Origin: a virus
Taxonomy: Duplodnaviria > Heunggongvirae > Uroviricota > Caudoviricetes
Virus record (IMG/VR): IMGVR_UViG_3300046543_000050
DNA: 10,809 nt
Reading direction: 5' to 3' (one strand)
The notes beneath the pieces were generated by a model. It was given only the letters and a program-made list of their open reading frames with translations. It made no database searches and was not told the DNA's origin. The position numbers and the translations under genes were made by a program. Shown here piece after piece: positions 3,148 to 10,774 of the stretch. Each line of letters begins with the position of its first letter. Within the stretch, counting starts at the first letter, position 1.

Positions 3148-3555
3148 CTAAATATTCAGTGTGGCTTTTATCGTCTCAAGCTTTTCTAAGTCTTGAGCGT
3201 ATTCTGTTATCTTGCGTTTCAGAAACGCGATGCGTTTGTCGATGGACCGTTCGTCATCATCTGGCTTCCGATTGAAACCGTTCTCGGAAGTTGTGATCCA
3301 TCTCAAATTCGTTGGATGATTGTTCCGTGGGTTGTTGTCGATGTGATCGACAACCGCACCTTCGAAGAACCCGTCAACGTGGACGAGTGCAACTGCGCGA
3401 TGCAGATAAAGGATGGTGGACTTCTGGTTCACATAGACGTTACAGAACAGATGTCCGCTTCCGCTGTCAGTGAATGAGAGTGGGCGTCCTTTCTTTCCGA
3501 TGATATTAAAATCACTGGTCAATTTATAGCCAGTGTGGAATGGGATGTCGTACAT
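3148..3555 (-). CDS. Free-standing HNH homing endonuclease (HNH_3-type) with C-terminal coiled coil
   Basis: LYLHRAVA...VVDHIDNNPRNNHPTNLRWITTSEN motif. Inserted between the minus-strand late promoter and gene 4. Confidence 0.85.
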   Translation of the reverse strand: MYDIPFHTGYKLTSDFNIIGKKGRPLSFTDSGSGHLFCNVYVNQKSTILYLHRAVALVHVDGFFEGAVVDHIDNNPRNNHPTNLRWITTSENGFNRKPDDDERSIDKRIAFLKRKITEYAQDLEKLETIKATLNI

Positions 3556-3567
3556 GGCACCTTTTCT

Positions 3568-3575
3568 TATAAATA
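3568..3575 (+). promoter_or_regulatory. T4-type late promoter (perfect TATAAATA) for gp48 and the downstream island
   Basis: Exact match to the gp55-dependent consensus TATAAATA, 23 nt upstream of the gp48 ATG. Confidence 0.85.
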
Positions 3576-3598: not shown

Positions 3599-4810
3599 AT
3601 GGGACTTCTCGATTCAACACTGTCAAGTGCGATTACCGGCATCAAGAACACAGTCAGTTCTCACTTGCCGTCGATTTCAAATCTCACCAAAGACACGACC
3701 AAACTCGATACCTTTAAAACGGTAGGGACTGACACGCATGAAATTCAGCAAATGCAGTATCCGGCTGACATCACACAGGCGACAGATATTCCGCATTGGG
3801 TGACGTTCTATATCAACGTGCGCGGCAAGTCGAAAATCGCACAACAAAATCCCGATCAATTGGCGACTGGCACTCCCGTTACTCTCGCTGGTGAAAATCG
3901 TCTGGACCCGGCGACGATGGATAACGCTGTAATCGCCCAAGGCACGGTTGGCGGCGCTGTCGCGTCGTTGGGGGCTGGTAAGAAGGTTGGTCTGTATGCG
4001 GCAAAGGCGGCGTTCGCGCGGTCGGTTGGCGGCGGTTCAGGGGCCAAAGCTTCGGCGATCAAAGCGACCATCGCGGGTGTCACGGCTGGTGGTGCTGTCG
4101 TAGGTGCTGGTGCGGTCGCAGGGGGCCTCATGGCGACGCTGACGGTCAAACCTGACACAACCTACCGACTGAAGGACGCGATCACGCTGTACGTCCCACA
4201 ATCGCCTGTATTCCACTCTGGCGCACAGTACGACACAGTGGACTTCGGGGCACTTGGTGGTTTCGCTGCTGGCGGCGCTTCCTACGCCGATACGCTTGAC
4301 AAGTCACAACAGAACCAAGAGGCACTTCTGGCGGCTGCGCGAGCGATGATGAAGGGTCCGGCGAAGTTCCTGACAGGTAGCGGCGCTGGCGCGATGGTCG
4401 AAGCGACGACCAAGCAAACTTTGAATCCGTATCGTGAAGTTCTGTTTAAGCAGATTGACTTCCGTAGGTTCTCGTTTGATTATCGATTCCTTCCGAAGTC
4501 GCAAGCTGAAACCGACACGGTTCAGAAAATCATCAAGACGTTCCGTTATCACATGCACCCGGAACGCAGTTCTGGCGGAATGTATTATATCCATCCATCT
4601 GAGTTCAACATCCAGTATTTCTTCAAGAAGCAAGAGAATACATATATCAATAAGATTTCAACTTGCGTACTGGTTGATATGGACGTTCAGTATGGTCCGT
4701 CTGAAGGGTTCTCGACATTCGGTAATGGTGCTCCCACGGAAATCTCCATGCGTCTGATGTTCCAAGAACTCGAAACTCTCACAAAGGAACGCATCGACGC
4801 GGGCTATTAA
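3599..4810 (+). CDS. gp48: T4 gp48-like baseplate tail tube cap
   Basis: C-terminal half LNPYREVLFKQIDFRRFSFDYRFLPKSQAE...IIKTFRYHMHP...PSEFNIQY...ISTCVLVDMDVQYGP...GAPTEISMRLMFQELETLTKERI is typical of gp48. N-terminal QYP-x-D motif. Follows a late promoter. Confidence 0.9.
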   Translation: MGLLDSTLSSAITGIKNTVSSHLPSISNLTKDTTKLDTFKTVGTDTHEIQQMQYPADITQATDIPHWVTFYINVRGKSKIAQQNPDQLATGTPVTLAGENRLDPATMDNAVIAQGTVGGAVASLGAGKKVGLYAAKAAFARSVGGGSGAKASAIKATIAGVTAGGAVVGAGAVAGGLMATLTVKPDTTYRLKDAITLYVPQSPVFHSGAQYDTVDFGALGGFAAGGASYADTLDKSQQNQEALLAAARAMMKGPAKFLTGSGAGAMVEATTKQTLNPYREVLFKQIDFRRFSFDYRFLPKSQAETDTVQKIIKTFRYHMHPERSSGGMYYIHPSEFNIQYFFKKQENTYINKISTCVLVDMDVQYGPSEGFSTFGNGAPTEISMRLMFQELETLTKERIDAGY

Positions 4811-5706
4811 TGGAACTCAAACAGCTTTTTCAGGCGAAGTACGGTTCGCCAAAAACTCTCGACAAACTCACCGAGCACCCTGAGTCAGTCATTCGGGCAC
4901 AAGTTGCGATTCATGGTTCAGACGGGCATCGCGAGAAGCTTCTGAAAGACAAGAATTCCGGCGTGGTTGCCTGTGCGTTGTCGGGGCGAAATAAAGAACA
5001 TCTCGACGCACACATCAACCATCCGAGTACAATGGTACGGGGCGCGGTCGCTGAGTACGGGAACGCTGGACACCACGCCAGACTGATGCATGACAAGGAA
5101 AGCGACGTGCGCGAAAAGGTTGCCGAACACACGCCAGACGAACACATCACAGACCATCTGGCGGACGATCACGATCACTACGTTCGTGCTGCGGTCGCTC
5201 GCAATCCGAATACCTCAGACCGTACACTCGAACGCCTGAAGGACGACTTGCATGGTTACGTTCGGACCCGCGCGCATCAAGAGTACTCGCGGCGCAACCC
5301 GGACGAATGGATCGCAGAGGACGTGGGCCATATGACATTCGCAGCGCACCAGAAGGTCCATCACAACATCGACGCGATGATGCATGACCCGGACCATGAA
5401 GTCCGCCTGAAAGCGGCGTCAAAGGGTTCTAAGCATCATCTGGACCAGCTTGTCAATGACAGCCATCCGGCAGTGCGGGGTGAAGTTGCGCTGCGCGGTC
5501 ACAGTGACCATCTCGACAAACTGATGCACGATCCACATGAGAACGTTCGTCAGATCGTGGCGATTCGCGGCAAGCATCAACACGTCAAGCATCTGACGAA
5601 TGATTCGGACCCGGTAGTGCGCCAACTGGCATCGAAGCATCCGTCCATGCGGATGAACGAAGAAACAATAATCGCGGACATCCGCACTAAACTACTCGAA
5701 TCATAA
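4810..5706 (+). CDS. KYGS-family His-rich HEAT/LRV-like repeat protein 1 (298 aa, about 10 repeats)
   Basis: N-terminal FQAKYGSPK. About 10 units of the type HLDKLMHDPHENVRQIVAIRGKHQ (24 aa), with one central linker. TAATG overlap with gp48. Confidence 0.85.
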   Translation: MELKQLFQAKYGSPKTLDKLTEHPESVIRAQVAIHGSDGHREKLLKDKNSGVVACALSGRNKEHLDAHINHPSTMVRGAVAEYGNAGHHARLMHDKESDVREKVAEHTPDEHITDHLADDHDHYVRAAVARNPNTSDRTLERLKDDLHGYVRTRAHQEYSRRNPDEWIAEDVGHMTFAAHQKVHHNIDAMMHDPDHEVRLKAASKGSKHHLDQLVNDSHPAVRGEVALRGHSDHLDKLMHDPHENVRQIVAIRGKHQHVKHLTNDSDPVVRQLASKHPSMRMNEETIIADIRTKLLES

Positions 5707-6443
5707 TGGCAACGGCAGACGAAAACAAAGCTGACTTCGGACTTCGGTACGGTTCACCGAAGATGCACGAAAAGATGACGAATCACCCGGAACCCCATGT
5801 CCGCGAATCACTCGCCATGCTCACAGACTCGAAGCCAGTTCTCAGTAAGCTGAGTAATGATAAGAGTGTCGGCGTTCGGCGTGAAGTTGCGAAGCGTGGT
5901 CATGATGATCACTTGAAGAAGCTGATGCATGATTCGGACTACTCAGTACGCGGCGCAGTGGCATACAAGGGTAAGCATCTCGATCACCTGATCAACGATG
6001 AAGACGAGTATGTTCGCACGGCAGTTGCCAGTCGCGGTACGAAGGCCCACCATGACGTACTGGTCAATGACGTTCATCCGAAGGTCCGTGCAGAAGTCGC
6101 AGAGATGGGTACGGACGCGCATCGCGACAAGCTGGTGAATGATCCTGAACCTCTGGTCCGGGCGCGCGTGGCGAAGTTCGGCAACGATGGTCATCGCGAC
6201 AAGTTAGTACATGATGTCAGTCGCAAGGTCCGTACAGAAGTCGCCACAAAGGGCAACGATTCGCATCACCAAATTTTGAAGCATGACAAGGACACCGAAG
6301 TACAACGTGCAGTGATGACGTACTCGAAGAATCCCGATGTCATCCATCATCTGGCAACGTCCCCGGACTCAAACGTCAAGGGTAATGCAGGTTCGAAGTA
6401 TCGTGCATTGACTGGCACATTTGGTAGTGGAAAGGAAGTGTGA
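5706..6443 (+). CDS. KYGS-family repeat protein 2 (245 aa, about 9 repeats)
   Basis: N-terminal FGLRYGSPK. Repeats such as HRDKLVNDPEPLVRARVAKFGNDG. TAATG overlap with the previous gene. Confidence 0.85.
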   Translation: MATADENKADFGLRYGSPKMHEKMTNHPEPHVRESLAMLTDSKPVLSKLSNDKSVGVRREVAKRGHDDHLKKLMHDSDYSVRGAVAYKGKHLDHLINDEDEYVRTAVASRGTKAHHDVLVNDVHPKVRAEVAEMGTDAHRDKLVNDPEPLVRARVAKFGNDGHRDKLVHDVSRKVRTEVATKGNDSHHQILKHDKDTEVQRAVMTYSKNPDVIHHLATSPDSNVKGNAGSKYRALTGTFGSGKEV

Positions 6444-7201
6444 TGGCAGACGATTACGACATCGAAGACACGAAGCATAAGTTCAAGGCTAAATATGGTT
6501 CGCCCAAGATTCATGACGAGATGATCGCGGGCAAGCCCGGTAAGTATGGGATCAAACCACAATACGATCACCTTGAAACGATTGCTAGTCATAAGAACAA
6601 GGCACATCTCGACAAGATGGTCGATCACCCGAATTGGGTAGTTCGAAACGCGGTCGCAGAACATGGCACATCCGAACACCATGATAAACTGATGCATGAC
6701 CCGGACGAATCGGTTCGGATGACGGTGGCAATACACGGAACCGACAAGCATCGCGATCACCTGATGCATGACGAAGATGGACTGGTGCGCAATGCAGTGG
6801 CATCCGAAGGAAATGATCATCATCGCGATCACCTGATGCATGACAATGCCTTGCGGGTTCGCGAGCAAGTGGCGACGTGGGGAAGTACACGACACCATGA
6901 TCATCTTGTGCATGATGGTGGTCCGGTTGTTCGGGCACGAGTAGCACAGAACGGCACTGATGCGCACCGCGAGAAGCTTCTAAATGATCCAGACAACGAA
7001 GTTCGTCTCAACGTCGCAGCTAAAGCAAACAAAGCCCATGCGCAACACTTGATGAATGATCCGGTCCTGCATGTTCGTCGCGAAGCTGCAAGGCGTTACC
7101 AATCATTACATCTCGCCGATGGTGGTCACGATGACGATCTTCTGGCAAAGTTGAAAGAATCCAAAACCGTAAAGTCGTTCAAGACCTTTTCGGCTAAATA
7201 A
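6443..7201 (+). CDS. KYGS-family repeat protein 3 (about 252 aa, 7 repeats)
   Basis: N-terminal FKAKYGSPK. Repeats such as HRDHLMHDEDGLVRNAVASEGNDH. The track start 6440 is GTG; ATG 6443 (TGATG overlap, AAGGA RBS at 6432-6436) is more likely. Confidence 0.85.
   Translation: MADDYDIEDTKHKFKAKYGSPKIHDEMIAGKPGKYGIKPQYDHLETIASHKNKAHLDKMVDHPNWVVRNAVAEHGTSEHHDKLMHDPDESVRMTVAIHGTDKHRDHLMHDEDGLVRNAVASEGNDHHRDHLMHDNALRVREQVATWGSTRHHDHLVHDGGPVVRARVAQNGTDAHREKLLNDPDNEVRLNVAAKANKAHAQHLMNDPVLHVRREAARRYQSLHLADGGHDDDLLAKLKESKTVKSFKTFSAK
6749..6844 (+). repeat. Exact 24-nt direct repeat at a 72-nt period inside repeat protein 3
   Basis: CATCGCGATCACCTGATGCATGAC at 6749-6772 and 6821-6844 (encodes HRDHLMHD twice). 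Confidence 0.9.
7193..7200 (+). promoter_or_regulatory. T4-type late promoter variant (GCTAAATA) for the 7229 gene and the distal array
   Basis: CTAAATA overlaps the stop of repeat protein 3, 28 nt upstream of ATG 7229, at the largest intergenic gap of the island. Confidence 0.6.
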
Positions 7202-7228
7202 TAAACTACCCACTCAAGGCTTACTCTC

Positions 7229-8014
7229 ATGAACATCAACAGTTCCATCGTCCACGCATACAAGCTGGCACACTGGTCAACCCTCGATGAAAGCGTTCTC
7301 ACTGAAGAACAAATTCAATTCGTTATGGAAAATCGCGTCGAATTCTTGAAGAAGAATAACGCATCACTTGACACGTCGCATGACCCGCACGGCGCACATA
7401 AAGAAGCTGGCGACATCATCGACCACTTTGCTACGCACGCTGATCCGACCAAGAACAAGGCACATACGCAATGGATCGTCGGGCAGTACAAGAAGGGTCA
7501 AGTCCGTCAGGAAGACGCTGGTCGTATCCACGGCGCACTGTCGAACTTCGAGAAGTACAAAGGCAAGCTGGCGAACAAAGACATCAACAGCTACAAGAAG
7601 GTGTCTGACGTTGAAGACGCGACTGCACCGCACGAAGGTTCGCACGCTTCGAAGAAGGCCGAAGTTCGCGCAATCAAGCACGAAGGCGCTGACCTGAAGT
7701 ACGAAGACGAACACGTTCAGATTCACCACATCAAGACCGAAGAAGCTGCGAAGCACTACGGCAAGGGCACCAAATGGTGTACGGCGGCTGACAATAACAA
7801 TATGTTCAGTCACTATCACCAAGACGGCCCTATCCACGTCATCACGCACAAGACTGAGAAGGACTCAGAAGGTCGCCCGCGTAAGTTCCAGTTCCATGCG
7901 GCGAGTAATCAGTTCATGGACGAGAAGGACAACGAGATTTCGCACGACGATTTCAAGAAGATCAAGCCGTCATTCCACGCGGCTATCGACAAGCATCCTG
8001 AGATGGTGGATTAA
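7229..8014 (+). CDS. His-rich hypothetical protein with a GTKWCTA motif (PcfJ-like domain suspected)
   Basis: 261 aa. ADPTKNKAHTQWI...KDINSY in the N-half; YEDEHVQIHHIKTEEAAKHYGKGTKWCTAA...FSHY...GPIHVI...KFQFH...QFMDEKD in the C-half. This resembles the TxWC-motif PcfJ-like proteins of large phages (from memory; needs HMM confirmation). No KYGS motif and no 24-aa repeats. Confidence 0.7.
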   Translation: MNINSSIVHAYKLAHWSTLDESVLTEEQIQFVMENRVEFLKKNNASLDTSHDPHGAHKEAGDIIDHFATHADPTKNKAHTQWIVGQYKKGQVRQEDAGRIHGALSNFEKYKGKLANKDINSYKKVSDVEDATAPHEGSHASKKAEVRAIKHEGADLKYEDEHVQIHHIKTEEAAKHYGKGTKWCTAADNNNMFSHYHQDGPIHVITHKTEKDSEGRPRKFQFHAASNQFMDEKDNEISHDDFKKIKPSFHAAIDKHPEMVD

Positions 8015-8017
8015 TCC

Positions 8018-8377
8018 ATGTACCACGATCCGGCACTGAAGAAGGCCATGTTTGCAACGAAATACGGTTCGCCTAAAACTCAGTCCCGGATTGCGAAGCG
8101 TGGGACTGTGGTTCAACGTGTTCACATATCCCACGCTGGACCGCCTGAACTTCTCGATCATATGGTCAAGGACAAGAACTCAGAAGTCCGTTGGAATGTC
8201 GCAAACCGTGGCGAGAAGCGTCACCTTGATCAACTGGTGAATGATAAGGATGGTGATGTTCGTGCAAGAGTAGCGCAACACGGCTACAAGGATCACTACG
8301 AAGCGCTGAAGAATGATAAAGACCCGAAGGTGAAATACTTCGCGGACAATGCAAAGAGAGAAGGACTAAAGGACTGA
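8018..8377 (+). CDS. KYGS-family repeat protein 4 (119 aa, about 3 repeats)
   Basis: N-terminal FATKYGSPK. Repeats such as HLDQLVNDKDGDVRARVAQHGYKD. Starts 3 nt after the upstream stop. Confidence 0.85.
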   Translation: MYHDPALKKAMFATKYGSPKTQSRIAKRGTVVQRVHISHAGPPELLDHMVKDKNSEVRWNVANRGEKRHLDQLVNDKDGDVRARVAQHGYKDHYEALKNDKDPKVKYFADNAKREGLKD

Positions 8378-8379
8378 TC

Positions 8380-8814
8380 ATGAGTGAATTATCAAAACTC
8401 TCCTTCATCAACAAGTACGGCGCGGATCGACACAAGAAGGCTGTCGAACCAAAGATCGACAAGATTCTTGATGCGGGCAGCACGAATGATGTCAGTGACC
8501 TCGCGTATGAAGGTCTGGTCACGAAACCAGAACATGTCACCCGTATCATCGATCACAAGAACGATGATGGACGACATGCTGGCAACAGTCCGATCCATCA
8601 GTTGATTAAGTACAAGAGGGGACAGAAGTACATGACGGATGATCACTGGCATCGTCTGGCGCTTCACCCTGAAGTTGGCGTTACATCGAACGCGCTGTCG
8701 AGTATGCCGCTGAAGCACGTCAAGACGGCTGCACAACATCACCCGGACGACTTCACACGACAGCTTGCAACTAATCACTACGTTCGCCAGAAGCAACTTG
8801 GGGTACAAGAATGA
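8380..8814 (+). CDS. KYGS-family protein 5, divergent subtype B (144 aa)
   Basis: N-terminal FINKYGADR. C-terminal DDHWHRLALH...MPLKHVKTAAQHHPDDFTRQLATNHY is paralogous to protein 7. AAGGA RBS. Confidence 0.8.
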   Translation: MSELSKLSFINKYGADRHKKAVEPKIDKILDAGSTNDVSDLAYEGLVTKPEHVTRIIDHKNDDGRHAGNSPIHQLIKYKRGQKYMTDDHWHRLALHPEVGVTSNALSSMPLKHVKTAAQHHPDDFTRQLATNHYVRQKQLGVQE

Positions 8815-9437
8815 GTAAATCAAAATTTCTGTCGAAGTACGGTTCACCTAAGCATATGGACCGTATGACGACAAGCCCAGATGAATATGATCGTCTGGCT
8901 ATCGCACAAAACCATCCAGATCGTCATTCTAAGATGCTGAATGATCCGAGTGAACGCGTTCGCAAGAATATATCTTACACGACCACGGATAAAAATCATC
9001 TGGACCATATGATGCACGACGCAAGTTCCGATGTACGCGGGAACGTTGCTCGGCATGGACACAAAGATCATCTGGACAAACTGGTGCATGATAAAGACTG
9101 GTATGTTCGTGAACGGGTCGCCAGTCATGGATACAAAGAACACGCCGACAAACTGGTTAGTGATCCTGATCCATCGGTGCGTTACCAAGTTGCCACGCAT
9201 GGTCATCATCACGACAAACTAGTGCATGATGAAAGTTCGTTGGTACGTCAGTCCGTAGCTAGTCGCGGCAATGAAGAACATCGCGCAATACTGGCCCACG
9301 ACAAAGACGTGAACGTTCGAATGGAAGTTGCCAAGAGTTCAGAAGATCGCGGCACCCTCGAAAAATTGAAGGCCGATCCTCACCCAGACGTAGCGCGTCA
9401 TGCGAAGCGTCACTCGGCTGACCTCGGATTTTATTGA
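8811..9437 (+). CDS. KYGS-family repeat protein 6 (208 aa, about 8 repeats)
   Basis: N-terminal FLSKYGSPK. Repeats such as HLDKLVHDKDWYVRERVASHGYKE. ATGA overlap with the previous gene. Confidence 0.85.
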   Translation: MSKSKFLSKYGSPKHMDRMTTSPDEYDRLAIAQNHPDRHSKMLNDPSERVRKNISYTTTDKNHLDHMMHDASSDVRGNVARHGHKDHLDKLVHDKDWYVRERVASHGYKEHADKLVSDPDPSVRYQVATHGHHHDKLVHDESSLVRQSVASRGNEEHRAILAHDKDVNVRMEVAKSSEDRGTLEKLKADPHPDVARHAKRHSADLGFY

Positions 9438-9438
9438 T

Positions 9439-10035
9439 ATGTCGGCAATGTCTAAACTACAGTTTCTTGGGAAGTACGGTTCCGAGAAACATAAAGCAGC
9501 AATCCCGGCCAAGATCGATCACGAGATGTCGAAGGTCAAGACGGATGTCGATCATATGACGGACGACGAAGAAATTCATGGCTTCACAATGGCACAGTCG
9601 CCACTCGTCAAGGGTAAGCATCTGGACAAGCTGGTGAGTACGAATTCATCGTACATCCGTGAAGGTGCGTCGATGAATCCAAATCTTCAACCCCATCACG
9701 TCGATGCCATCATTGCACATGATAAAAGTGGTAATTCAACGAACCACATCATCAGGAACAAGAATGTCAAGATGAATTCTGACCAGTTGCACAAGGCTAT
9801 CGATCATCCGGGCGATAGTCATCCGGCTAGTTGGATTGAAGCGCGGGCATCAGACCTCAATGATGACCATTGGGATAAGCTGGCGAAACATAAGCATCAG
9901 GGCGCTGCATTGGCGGTTTTGCGCCTGATGCCTAAGAAACATCTTCAGACTGCGGCTGAACATAACCCGCATAAGATGATTCGCAATCTGGCACAGGCTC
10001 ACTACGAAGATCGAGAATCAAAGGGACGACAATGA
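9439..10035 (+). CDS. KYGS-family protein 7, divergent subtype B (about 198 aa)
   Basis: N-terminal FLGKYGSEK. C-terminal DDHWDKLAKH...MPKKHLQTAAEHNPHKMIRNLAQAHY. The track start 9400 overlaps the previous gene by 38 nt; ATG 9439 (1 nt after the upstream TGA) or ATG 9448 is more plausible given motif position. Confidence 0.8.
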   Translation: MSAMSKLQFLGKYGSEKHKAAIPAKIDHEMSKVKTDVDHMTDDEEIHGFTMAQSPLVKGKHLDKLVSTNSSYIREGASMNPNLQPHHVDAIIAHDKSGNSTNHIIRNKNVKMNSDQLHKAIDHPGDSHPASWIEARASDLNDDHWDKLAKHKHQGAALAVLRLMPKKHLQTAAEHNPHKMIRNLAQAHYEDRESKGRQ

Positions 10036-10289
10036 CCAAGAATGTAATGTATTTTTCTGCGCCGTGGTGTGCGCCGTGTAAGGCATTTGCACCACAGTTC
10101 GATCAACTGATGGAAAAGCACTCGCACGTTTCATTCTCGAAGATCAACATCGATGACAACTTCGAAGAAGCCCGTACCTATGGTGTGCGCGCTATTCCTT
10201 GCATCGTGATCCTCGAAGATGGCGTTGAAACCAGTCGGCTTGCTGGTGGTGCAGTCAACAAGGCCAAACTCGATCAACTTCTGGGCTAA
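10032..10289 (+). CDS. trxA: Thioredoxin (short form, 85 aa)
   Basis: YFSAPWCAPCK active site (WCxPC), KINID, YGVRAIP cis-proline loop and R-x-x-G. ATGA overlap with protein 7. Confidence 0.92.
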   Translation: MTKNVMYFSAPWCAPCKAFAPQFDQLMEKHSHVSFSKINIDDNFEEARTYGVRAIPCIVILEDGVETSRLAGGAVNKAKLDQLLG

Positions 10290-10774
10290 GTTCTGGCGTA
10301 TTCTCCGACGACCTTTTCACGGAAGTTATTGAGGATACGCAGGGCTTCATCCTTGTCTTTGACTTGGCGTCTCAGCTTCTTGTCGCCGAACGCGCAATGA
10401 ACGATCCACGCCTGATCACGTTCAAGCCAACTAATACCTTTGATACCAGAAGTGTTGTTGCTGTTCTTATCGTGATTGGATAGATTCTGTGTGCGCGAAG
10501 CTTCGCGCAGATTAGAAATCCGATTGTTTCGACCATCGGTATCTTCGTGGTCGATCATCTTCTCTGGGAACTGACCATACACATACAGCCACGCTAGGCG
10601 ATGTGCGTAGTGTCGCGTTCCATCAATACCAATCAAGATGTAGCCCAACTTCTCACTGAATGCGCCCGCAACTTCTCCTACGCGGATACGGTTGCTGGTT
10701 CGAACCTTCCATGTGAATAATCCGGTGTCCTGATCGTAATGAAGGACTTCTTTTAGTCTTGCTTGCGTCAACAT
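10286..10774 (-). CDS. Free-standing HNH homing endonuclease with an AP2-like C-terminal domain
   Basis: LTQARLKEVLHYDQDTGLFTW...AHRLAWLYVYGQFP..MIDHEDTDGRNNRISNLREA...QN, then NTSGIKGISW...W: the common HNH_3 + AP2 architecture. Convergent stop overlap with the thioredoxin. Confidence 0.88.
   Translation of the reverse strand: MLTQARLKEVLHYDQDTGLFTWKVRTSNRIRVGEVAGAFSEKLGYILIGIDGTRHYAHRLAWLYVYGQFPEKMIDHEDTDGRNNRISNLREASRTQNLSNHDKNSNNTSGIKGISWLERDQAWIVHCAFGDKKLRRQVKDKDEALRILNNFREKVVGEYART

Follow-up and report, generated by a model that had tools for sequence, protein, structure and literature searches.

The closest described relative of the repeat proteins treated here is the LRV protein of Azotobacter vinelandii (PDB ID 1LRV; Pfam ID PF01816), which is built from 24-residue repeats with the core L-x2-D-x4-V-R-x2-V-A. 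The loop of a typical LRV repeat (Pfam consensus) reads N-P-x2-P, and we know of no function for 1LRV. A similar solenoid geometry is found in the HEAT scaffold of the PP2A A-subunit and in the artificial alphaRep binders (TM of up to 0.71 with alphaRep), and alphaRep libraries, in which surface positions are randomised on a constant framework, yield specific protein binders (PMC3754942). The alphaRep and PP2A repeats have at least 31 residues compared with 24 in the phage proteins, with which they share no ancestry beyond the fold class, and they have no hub-docking handle.

Two further systems combine a constant element with variable partners. DGR target genes of CPR bacteria contain a PcfJ-like motif upstream of their diversified variable region (PMC5758913), a similar logic of a constant module plus a variable binder. 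The T4 internal proteins are described as a diverse defence set sharing only a targeting sequence (PMC3012670). They include IPI-III and, with Alt, reach the head by means of this capsid targeting sequence.

The stretch of DNA analysed here, called the window, comprises 10,809 nucleotides from an uncultured T4-like soil phage (IMG/VR record IMGVR_UViG_3300046543_000050). It carries an island of eight genes, which encode the protein D and seven paralogous solenoid proteins, A, B, C, E, F, G, and H (Table 1).

Gene order and transcription of the island

Table 1. Features of the island and its flanks, with positions in the window
Feature	Coordinates	Strand	Evidence and remarks
Late promoter motif, T4-type, TATAAATA	3568..3575	+	Exact match upstream of gp48; consensus match only
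Baseplate tail-tube cap resembling gp48; the transcription unit starts with this gene	3599..4810	+	phrog_230, E 6.6e-51
A, 298-aa LRV solenoid, handle near residues 4-17, irregular middle insert	4810..5706	+	Pfam LRV 67.6 bits; phrog_20647 E 1.8e-38
B, 245-aa LRV solenoid, handle residues 4-20	5706..6443	+	AF2 pLDDT 95.8; top Foldseek match 1LRV
C, 252-aa LRV solenoid, seven regular repeats	6443..7201	+	Pfam HEAT 41.6 bits; phrog_20647 E 6.5e-39
CTAAATA, weak late-promoter-like variant	7195..7201	+	Read from sequence; two positions off TATAAATA
D, 261-aa putative hub protein, constant domain	7229..8014	+	121 homologues; AF2 pLDDT 94.4
E, 119-aa short LRV member, handle and 2-3 repeats	8018..8377	+	Pfam HEAT 24.3 bits; phrog_20647 E 5.7e-14
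F, 144-aa divergent member (subtype B), handle retained	8380..8814	+	No Pfam match; hhalign to family, probability 98%
G, 208-aa LRV solenoid	8811..9437	+	Pfam LRV 27.8 bits and HEAT 47.4 bits
H, 198-aa divergent member (subtype B), handle retained	9439..10035	+	Aligned with F and an L029 protein
Thioredoxin, final coupled gene of the island	10032..10289	+	phrog_22, E 3.3e-11; 4-nt overlap with the end of H

The late promoter motif ends 23 nt ahead of the ATG of gp48, whose product is 69% identical to its orthologue in the related locus L002 and whose stop codon overlaps the start of A. From there on, the genes overlap or are separated by no more than 3 nt, with the exception of 27 nt preceding D, the sole real intergenic gap of the island, where the CTAAATA variant is placed just ahead of D. 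No terminator-like site was found on the plus strand within the island. An earlier note on this DNA had described the array as part of a late operon; the perfect promoter match and the tight junctions speak for this, but the promoter is a consensus match only, and late control of the island is rated as plausible. The few contigs that come from RNA libraries could be DNA. The thioredoxin gene at the end of the island is conserved in three related loci (L002, L012, and L013), and its membership in the system is uncertain.

Seven solenoid paralogues with a shared N-terminal handle

The open reading frames of all seven paralogues with the N-terminal KYGS motif are present at the starts given in the earlier note (4810, 5706, 6443, 8018, 8380, 8811, and 9439), and for C and H the ATG at 6443 and 9439, respectively, is favoured by the agreement with orthologue N-termini. 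The motif, here called the handle, reads K-x-x-F-x-x-K-Y-G, or K-x-x-F-x-x-K-Y-G-S-P-K in its longer form, and its K, F, Y, and G are the same in every member of the seven-way alignment, including F and H, which lack the repeat consensus. At the DNA level, the handle is the best-conserved segment among the paralogues (family D9, 73 to 85% identity).

The 31 repeats of A, B, C, E, and G reproduce the consensus of the earlier note, H-[LHR]-D-[KH]-L-[VM]-[HN]-D-x4-V-R-x2-V-A-x2-G-x3, with a spacing of 24 residues (22 in two units) and with an entropy of at most 1 bit in the framework columns V13, R14, A18, D8, and L5. A strict regular expression counts 7, 8-9, 7, 2, and 6 repeats in these five proteins; of the 10, 9, 7, 3, and 8 counted before, those for A and G are a little too large if caps and degenerate units are left aside.

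The assignment to LRV/HEAT-like alpha-solenoids, made before from the repeat core, is borne out by profiles and structure. The Pfam LRV family (PF01816) matches A and G above its cut-off of 21.6 bits, with B and E falling under it, and the HEAT family (PF02985, cut-off 23.5) is exceeded by A, B, C, E, and G. The AlphaFold model of B folds into ten helix pairs, and its top fold match, 1LRV (E 6.6e-7, TM 0.65/0.68), is also the only sequence relative in the PDB (E 7.6e-10). Compared with 1LRV, the phage proteins are His-rich, lack the Cys-rich N-terminal domain (each repeat protein has 0-1 Cys), and possess a dedicated handle, a panel of paralogues, and a partner protein; their loop reads G-x3-H, in contrast to the typical LRV loop.

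The same five proteins match the profile of phrog_20647 (E 1.8e-38 to 5.7e-14), a family of unknown function, in keeping with the view that no characterised family is involved. F and H, noted before as degenerate members, match neither this profile nor any in the Pfam search, yet their alignment matches the family alignment with a probability of 98% (hhalign, E 2.4e-13, 171 columns). Both also align with a protein of locus L029, in which a subtype-B N-terminus is joined to classical LRV repeats. The statement that T4 itself has no such array agrees with a tblastn search of 50,697 phage records, in which neither B nor D had a match in T4.

Between relatives, the solenoids are 38 to 64% identical (A 38% to its positional orthologue in L002, C 54%, and G 64%), compared with 65 to 89% for the flanking structural genes, and F is 86% identical to its orthologue in L004 (omega 0.065). 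Omega lies between 0.07 and 0.27 where measurable, which indicates purifying selection on an intact family and not a set of decaying duplicates. The family is diversified on a fixed framework, as claimed, with an orthologue identity of 0.82 at framework positions versus 0.38 at variable positions. Variable residues are thus better preserved between positional orthologues (0.38) than between random repeat pairs (0.16), which suggests specific surfaces.

Protein D and its predicted pairing with the handle

The earlier note had left D out of the system, which does not hold, as many of its relatives are fused to repeats and it is predicted to bind the shared handle; D is the putative constant partner of the seven solenoids. 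It belongs to a phage-only family found at 433 IMG/VR loci, almost entirely from uncultured phages. Among the loci retrieved, a single D gene is typical and a few have two or three copies. The residues D72, T181, W183, C184, T185, and Q221 are invariant and H223 and D234 near-invariant. The search for a solved-structure relative of D found none. Weak structural and language-model similarity was seen to PcfJ-like proteins (Pfam ID PF14284), namely, to AFDB entries of this name (E 2.5e-3 to 1.2e-2, TM 0.23-0.27) and to one ESM Atlas cluster at rank 21 with PcfJ on 26% of its members. However, PF14284 matches neither D (E up to 1) nor any of 44 relatives (E up to 0.1).

Across the family, the D domain is usually fused to repeats. 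About 50 of the 120 D homologues listed have C-terminal extensions after the D domain (residues ~12-237), most of which hold LRV/HEAT units by Pfam or repeat pattern, and in the ESM Atlas viral clusters have the D fold as their N-terminal module, followed by DUF4116, WG, LRV, LRR, or Ank repeats. These single-chain proteins, among them EST35_0205 of phage PA5oct, are 33-56% identical in the D domain and share its invariant motifs G-T-K-W-C-T-A and Q-F-H, whereas in the window the recognition domain is separate and present as seven genes. Stand-alone D has handle proteins beside it at 5 of 15 IMG/VR loci, the other 10 having none within 7 kb, and fused D at none of 45 loci. Further stand-alone D genes flanked by handle proteins are found in L007, L004, and L090. 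A profile of the handle gave nothing significant (E 3.4) against the fused forms and the PA5oct protein. Of the island genes, D evolves most slowly, with 82-90% identity between relatives and an omega of 0.12-0.15.

The structure of D in complex with B was predicted with ipSAE values of 0.80, 0.79, and 0.82, compared with 0.00 for the best of three controls; among benchmark pairs, this mark was attained by 58 of the 80 solved complexes tried and by 2 of the 110 pairs that were mismatched. At least 97% of the contacts agree between the runs, with a partner pLDDT of at least 91. The predicted interface on B covers residues 4-20, which are the handle, and that on D covers its conserved C-terminal face (residues 199-200, 222, 224-229, and 242-261). 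The model covers B, one of the seven solenoids, uses unpaired alignments, and may echo the within-chain packing of the fused relatives.

Because fusions to repeats are common among D homologues, the handle outlasts the repeat body and is invariant even in F and H, handle proteins adjoin stand-alone D only, the handle is the predicted interface with D, D evolves slowest and its partners faster, and the solenoid framework is conserved with a variable surface, we give somewhat better than an even chance to the island being a split hub-and-adaptor system made late, with D as the hub and the seven solenoids as adaptors. The constant hub D possibly has a Cys/His-dependent activity, and each adaptor would start with the same short two-helix handle, which forms the first helix pair of its solenoid and is predicted to dock at one conserved site of D, composed of strand 222-229 and the C-terminal helix. 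As this docking site is single, the seven adaptors would form alternative pairs with D. Each pair may be equivalent to a single-chain protein with D and repeat domains, as found in most related phages, and may have a different binding target owing to the variable surface positions of its solenoid. All eight genes would be expressed late from the gp48 promoter, with perhaps a second promoter before D.

The solenoids might instead work independently of D as binders or scaffolds, with the N-terminal motif as no more than a structural N-cap and D as a functionally separate neighbour, which we regard as improbable. In the monomer model of B, the motif makes up the initial pair of helices and sits on the solenoid in the manner of a cap, its sequence resembles half a repeat (F-x-A-K-Y-G-S-P-K-H-x-D-K-L versus V-A-x-H-G-x3-H-x-D-K-L), and a HEAT/LRV protein related to the solenoids occurs in the Vibrio phage vB_VmeM-32, in whose genome the search of the phage collection with D gave no match. 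However, the fusions, the occurrence of the handle with stand-alone D only, and the predicted interface all link the motif to D, and its persistence in members without the repeat consensus is unexpected for a purely structural cap.

Possible virion loading and role of the proposed hub-and-adaptor system

The earlier note had listed three candidate roles. A panel of binders for host defence proteins stays a candidate, virion-packaged effectors gain indirect support from the PA5oct protein and from the leaders of D relatives, and no specific support emerged for morphogenesis scaffolds. The distant homologue in PA5oct carries the annotation of a structural protein, based on ESI-MS/MS, and is the only single-chain D protein with an experimental datum, which demonstrates presence in the virion and says nothing on the location in the particle. 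T4-like capsid-targeting leaders occur in 44 of the 120 D homologues listed versus 8 of 984 background ORFs; they are close to the M-K-T-Y-Q-E-F-I-A-E of T4, an example being M-L-S-F-K-Q-F-I-I-L-E. A fused form in L009 directly follows homologues of gp21, gp22, and gp23. These observations suggest that D and its adaptors may be loaded into virions. In contrast, all eight proteins of the window lack such a leader, and because D and its whole subclade start with M-N-I-N-S-S instead, head loading in this phage is unsupported. D contains prohead-protease-type motifs ((L/I)-x-E), L-D-E at 19-21, L-T-E at 24-26, and V-M-E at 32-34, whose presence does not equal cleavage.

The hub-and-adaptor system would resemble the T4 internal proteins and Alt in being a late-made (here by prediction), diverse set of accessory proteins. 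Each T4 protein is tagged individually, whereas here the variable parts are predicted to be separate subunits tied to a hub by the handle. Beyond alternative pairing, we infer that the pairs may be loaded into the virion, be delivered to the host, and have some anti-host role. It is unlikely, although the boldest form of the proposal, that D is an enzyme whose invariant Cys/His site serves seven interchangeable substrate receptors plugged into it by their common handle, with the whole set loaded into the virion via the hub and injected against many host targets; if true, this would be a viral counterpart of the adaptor swapping in cullin-type ligases.

It also seems improbable that D and its partners, rather than being head cargo, belong to the accessory proteins of the baseplate or tail and are assembled on the particle beside gp48 and gp53. 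The island is flanked by gp48 on one side and by gp53 or gp5 on the other in the window and in L002, L007, L010, L012, and L013, it shares the late promoter of gp48, and the PA5oct mass spectrometry is compatible with a tail location. However, elsewhere D genes are found after the major capsid gene (L009) or among DNA-metabolism genes (L090), and many family members bear head-type leaders. Position also says little, as the gene of the head-packaged Alt lies near genes 48 and 54 in T4.

A bulk histidine-dependent role in such tasks as metal binding or a pH-switched charge for co-packing with DNA, and free of specific target recognition, appears very unlikely: histidine makes up 6-11% of each of the eight island proteins (1.7% of gp48, 2.4% of the thioredoxin) and occurs at the fixed repeat positions 1, 2, 4, 7, and 20, the calculated net charge shifts from about 0 at pH 7 to between +13 and +22 at pH 5.5, and relatives show weak, sub-threshold matches to a small metal-binding protein family, but His is not enriched across the wider D family (median 2.3%), its partner domains include typical recognition modules such as LRR, Ank, and WG repeats, and the variable residues kept by positional orthologues suggest specific surfaces.

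The proposed hub-and-adaptor system looks undescribed. The D family is large and among the clearest designs of a constant module plus a swappable recognition module in phages, and its split form offers a short, predicted docking motif, seven natural adaptor variants, and a hub in which one Cys is a candidate active-site residue. Should the pairs be delivered along with the DNA, they would represent a second, modular way to equip virions with host-directed proteins, beside the individually tagged internal proteins known from T4. With their portable docking handle, the 24-residue His-rich solenoids could also serve as a natural binder scaffold.

Gene content and layout

The window covers part of a morphogenesis region, from a distant T4-like phage that is uncultured and has a contig of 170,778 bases. 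A megablast search with the entire window against 50,697 phage records yielded zero matches, and near-identical DNA is found in rhizosphere and soil metagenomes from several studies.

Features of the window surrounding and including gene D
Feature	Position	Strand	Remark
Small ORF, 79 aa	367-606	plus	upstream of tail-tube-like gene; no PHROG match
Small ORF, 63 aa	1010-1201	plus	upstream of tail-tube-like gene; no PHROG match
Tail-tube-like gene	1198-2043	minus	
gp2 DNA end protector			in the window
gp4 head completion protein			in the window
HNH homing-endonuclease gene 1	3148-3555	minus	
gp48 baseplate tail-tube cap	3599-4810	plus	
D	7229-8014	plus	
Thioredoxin	10032-10289	plus	after last adaptor
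HNH homing-endonuclease gene 2	10286-10774	minus	

A perfect match to the T4 late-promoter motif ends 23 nt upstream of the gp48 start. From gp48 to the thioredoxin gene, adjacent genes overlap or sit at most 3 nt apart, the sole exception being a 27-nt gap upstream of D that contains CTAAATA, and no terminator-like site occurs on the plus strand inside the island, which comprises the eight genes A to H. In a rhizosphere metatranscriptome library, three short contigs match positions 5514-5716, 7195-7332, and 7478-7740 (the A/B junction and D) at a level of at least 95%, which is too little coverage to indicate transcription, and DNA carry-over is possible.

The gp48-to-thioredoxin unit has an HNH gene on either side. 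At the first HNH site, the close relative L002 carries a different gene of 155 aa, and at the second it has none, gp53 coming immediately after thioredoxin; the two HNH genes therefore look like separate mobile insertions. Translational coupling links the thioredoxin gene to the last adaptor. The gene stands at the island end in L002 and the related contigs L012 and L013, and not in L007; the protein could hold the invariant cysteine of D reduced, or be unrelated.

The repeat paralogues and their conservation

The earlier note had described seven genes with a common N-terminal motif and a 24-residue repeat consensus. The K, F, Y, and G of this motif (K-x-x-F-x-x-K-Y-G, here called the handle) are invariant in all seven paralogues, and the same consensus was recovered from 31 repeats taken out of the regular members A, B, C, E, and G. 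In these repeats, V13, R14, A18, D8, and L5 are nearly fixed, whereas positions 9-12, 15-16, 19-20, and 22-24 are free. The assignment to LRV/HEAT-like solenoids holds as well, as Pfam calls LRV and HEAT in the paralogues and the AlphaFold model of B, based on 17 family members, is an unbroken stack of ten helix pairs with a pLDDT of 95.8. The best match of this model among solved structures is 1LRV, which is also the only sequence relative with a solved structure. The paralogues, here termed adaptors, fall into the LRV/HEAT class; what sets them apart from 1LRV is their composition, loop motif, handle, and context.

The five regular members belong to phrog_20647, a PHROG of unknown function. 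Pfam yields nothing for F or H, which match the family alignment with 98% probability, and a protein of contig L029 combines an F/H-type N-terminus with classical LRV repeats in one chain. NCBIfam and PADLOC gave no meaningful match for D, B, F, or H; a word-based protein search with C returned paralogue A alone, an IMG/VR pattern scan with B found zero relatives, and our literature search on phage HEAT/LRV proteins found nothing specific.

The nearest LRV repeats outside the family are located on two proteins of 872 and 1300 aa (L005:1293-3911 and 8001-11903) of a 120-kb contig, adjoining PBECR4 and DUF3991-Toprim genes, a gene context typical for the polyvalent proteins that phages and conjugative elements encode. 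The 1300-aa protein (P0003) weakly matches LPD1 (large polyvalent protein) and shows no similarity to D.

The related contigs L002/L014, L012, and L013 (~168 kb each) and the fragments L004 and L007 share the gp48-to-thioredoxin/gp53 island, and its genes have positional orthologues there. Orthologue identity is 38% for A, 52% for B, 54% for C, 64% for G, 86% for F, and 82-90% for D, and the flanking structural genes show 65-89%. The close relatives vary in the number and length of the members, with six or seven handle genes apiece. Decay of the duplicates, which the earlier note had named as a finding that would speak against its reading, was not what we observed: omega is 0.07-0.27 where dS is unsaturated, dS being saturated for most pairs and leaving A, C, and G without an omega value. 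Framework positions, for which that note had expected purifying selection, are 82% identical between orthologues versus 68% between random repeats, and variable positions 38% versus 16%; every paralogue therefore retains part of its own surface. The paralogues are not decaying duplicates.

Tandem Repeats Finder detects no 72-nt DNA array, and a gapless repeat search finds the 72-nt spacing at 60-73% DNA identity only; the repeats are therefore of old rather than recent origin. In L015, a more distant phage, an independent expansion has placed at least six handle-LRV genes around D (5783-9831 and 13819-14442). Their first 25 residues are almost identical, which indicates a recent duplication or gene conversion there.

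Related-strain contigs from the metagenome runs X2 and X5 (rhizosphere and soil) end or change to other sequence near positions 4853, 6613, 8014-8018, 8937, and 10025, and in one of them a C-like repeat follows on from the end of D. These breaks and switches fall at or close to island gene borders, suggesting a cassette-like exchange of paralogues among co-occurring strains.

Gene D and the predicted docking of the handle

Pfam has no family for D, and D contains no repeats. The first search found 121 homologues, and about 50 of the 120 listed are longer proteins with a C-terminal extension after the D domain (residues about 12-237), most extensions containing LRV/HEAT units as judged by Pfam or the repeat pattern. 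A scan of IMG/VR with a 14-sequence D alignment found 433 loci with a D relative. The D model has a pLDDT of 94.4, and Foldseek returned nothing at an E value of 1e-3 or better among solved structures. The best VIA-align match, a GNAT-like transacylase (Z 6.8, residues 151-257), lies within the noise range of the tool and was rejected. The AlphaFold DB matches consist of uncharacterised multidomain proteins, with "PcfJ-like" entries appearing weakly. D is not a member of the Pfam PcfJ family and may be a remote relative; the literature on PcfJ offered nothing specific. Over 44 diverse members, D72, T181, W183, C184, T185, and Q221 are invariant and H223 and D234 near-invariant, a pattern of sequence conservation compatible with a thiol-dependent active site.

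The complex prediction for D and B reached ipSAE values of 0.80, 0.79, and 0.82, the best of three controls being 0.00; among solved complexes, 58 of 80 came up to this mark, and among mismatched pairs 2 of 110. The runs share at least 97% of their contacts, with a partner pLDDT of at least 91. On B, the predicted contacts coincide exactly with the handle motif (residues 4-20), and those on D are residues 199-200, 222, 224-229, and 242-261, a face on which F222, F229, and F242 are near-invariant in the fused (with C-terminal repeats) and stand-alone forms. As a model, this supports D-B binding; it was built on unpaired alignments and may mirror the within-chain packing of the fused relatives.

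A rival explanation is that the solenoids are independent and the N-terminal motif is merely an N-cap. In the monomer model of B, the solenoid opens with a helix pair (4-15 and 18-24) formed by the handle, whose sequence resembles a half repeat. The handle is retained in F, H, and 80-residue mini-members without the repeat consensus, it is the best-conserved DNA common to the paralogues, and, of the distinct IMG/VR loci, 5 of the 15 with a stand-alone D have a handle ORF beside it, as against 0 of the 45 with a fused D, all of which agrees with the docking reading independently of the model. A handle profile search against the fused D proteins and the PA5oct homologue of D gave nothing significant (PA5oct E value 3.4), and an "R-K-Y-G-M-S" resemblance seen by eye in the latter was dropped as evidence after this result. 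The lack of a significant handle match in fused forms fits a motif required only for the split chain.

On L090, two handle proteins without an LRV/HEAT Pfam match (7054-8004 and 8740-9513) flank a stand-alone D, which has a T4-like targeting leader and is located among DNA-metabolism genes. These handles sit on other bodies, and therefore the handle may be portable to other proteins. In the more distant T4-like phage L010, the LRV proteins at 7468-8004 and 10068-10367, close to a D with a leader, have a different common N-terminus, N-Y-L-K-x-A-x-x-D-K-S, which may be the form that the handle takes in that lineage.

Possible virion association and the proposed hub

The case for virion association is an indirect one. 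In PA5oct, the sole carrier in culture, the homologue (482 residues, D domain N-terminal, 33% identity) bears the annotation of a structural protein detected by ESI-MS/MS, the source study counting 93 virion-associated proteins. A leader much like the T4 capsid targeting sequence, with an (I/L)-x-E protease site at its end, is found in 44 of 120 D homologues and in 8 of 984 background ORFs, these eight resembling further tagged proteins. On L009, the fused D gene is placed behind those for the prohead protease, scaffold, and major capsid protein, and in L010 an Alt-like ADP-ribosyltransferase is encoded two genes downstream of the island. The likeness to the T4 internal proteins lies in the diverse late set and in the leader tags in relatives of D, but the defining leader is absent in the window's D, its whole subclade, and the seven partners; this D and its subclade start M-N-I-N-S-S ... 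L-D-E-S. The island position in the baseplate cluster would fit a tail location equally well, and a rival explanation makes the island proteins baseplate accessories. We place virion association just short of an even chance.

Histidine makes up 6-11% of all eight island proteins and about 2% of gp48 and thioredoxin, and the few leader-tagged neighbours in the examined loci tend to be His-rich. Owing to the histidines, the calculated net charge of the island proteins, about -4 to +8 at pH 7, climbs to between +13 and +22 at pH 5.5, a pH-switchable polycation property. A bulk His-dependent role is the further rival.

Our core proposal, D as a hub for seven adaptors, appears slightly better than an even call, and the later steps of the mechanism rank lower. 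D and the adaptors would be produced together, late in infection, and each handle would plug into the single site of D, so that seven different heterodimers could form as alternatives. Solenoid surfaces vary among paralogues and are partly conserved in orthologues, and they would bind different partners. D would supply the constant function of the family, be it a Cys-dependent activity or a part in anchoring or loading within the particle. Our literature search found no description of the D/adaptor family or of a hub-handle arrangement in phages.

ESM Atlas clusters that are virus-only have the D fold as their N-terminal module, followed by C-terminal parts with DUF4116, WG, LRV, LRR, or ankyrin repeats. 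Taken with the D fusions, this architecture indicates that D is a constant module, which phages couple to interchangeable recognition domains. In the lineage of the window, the recognition domain is split off as its own gene and multiplied sevenfold.
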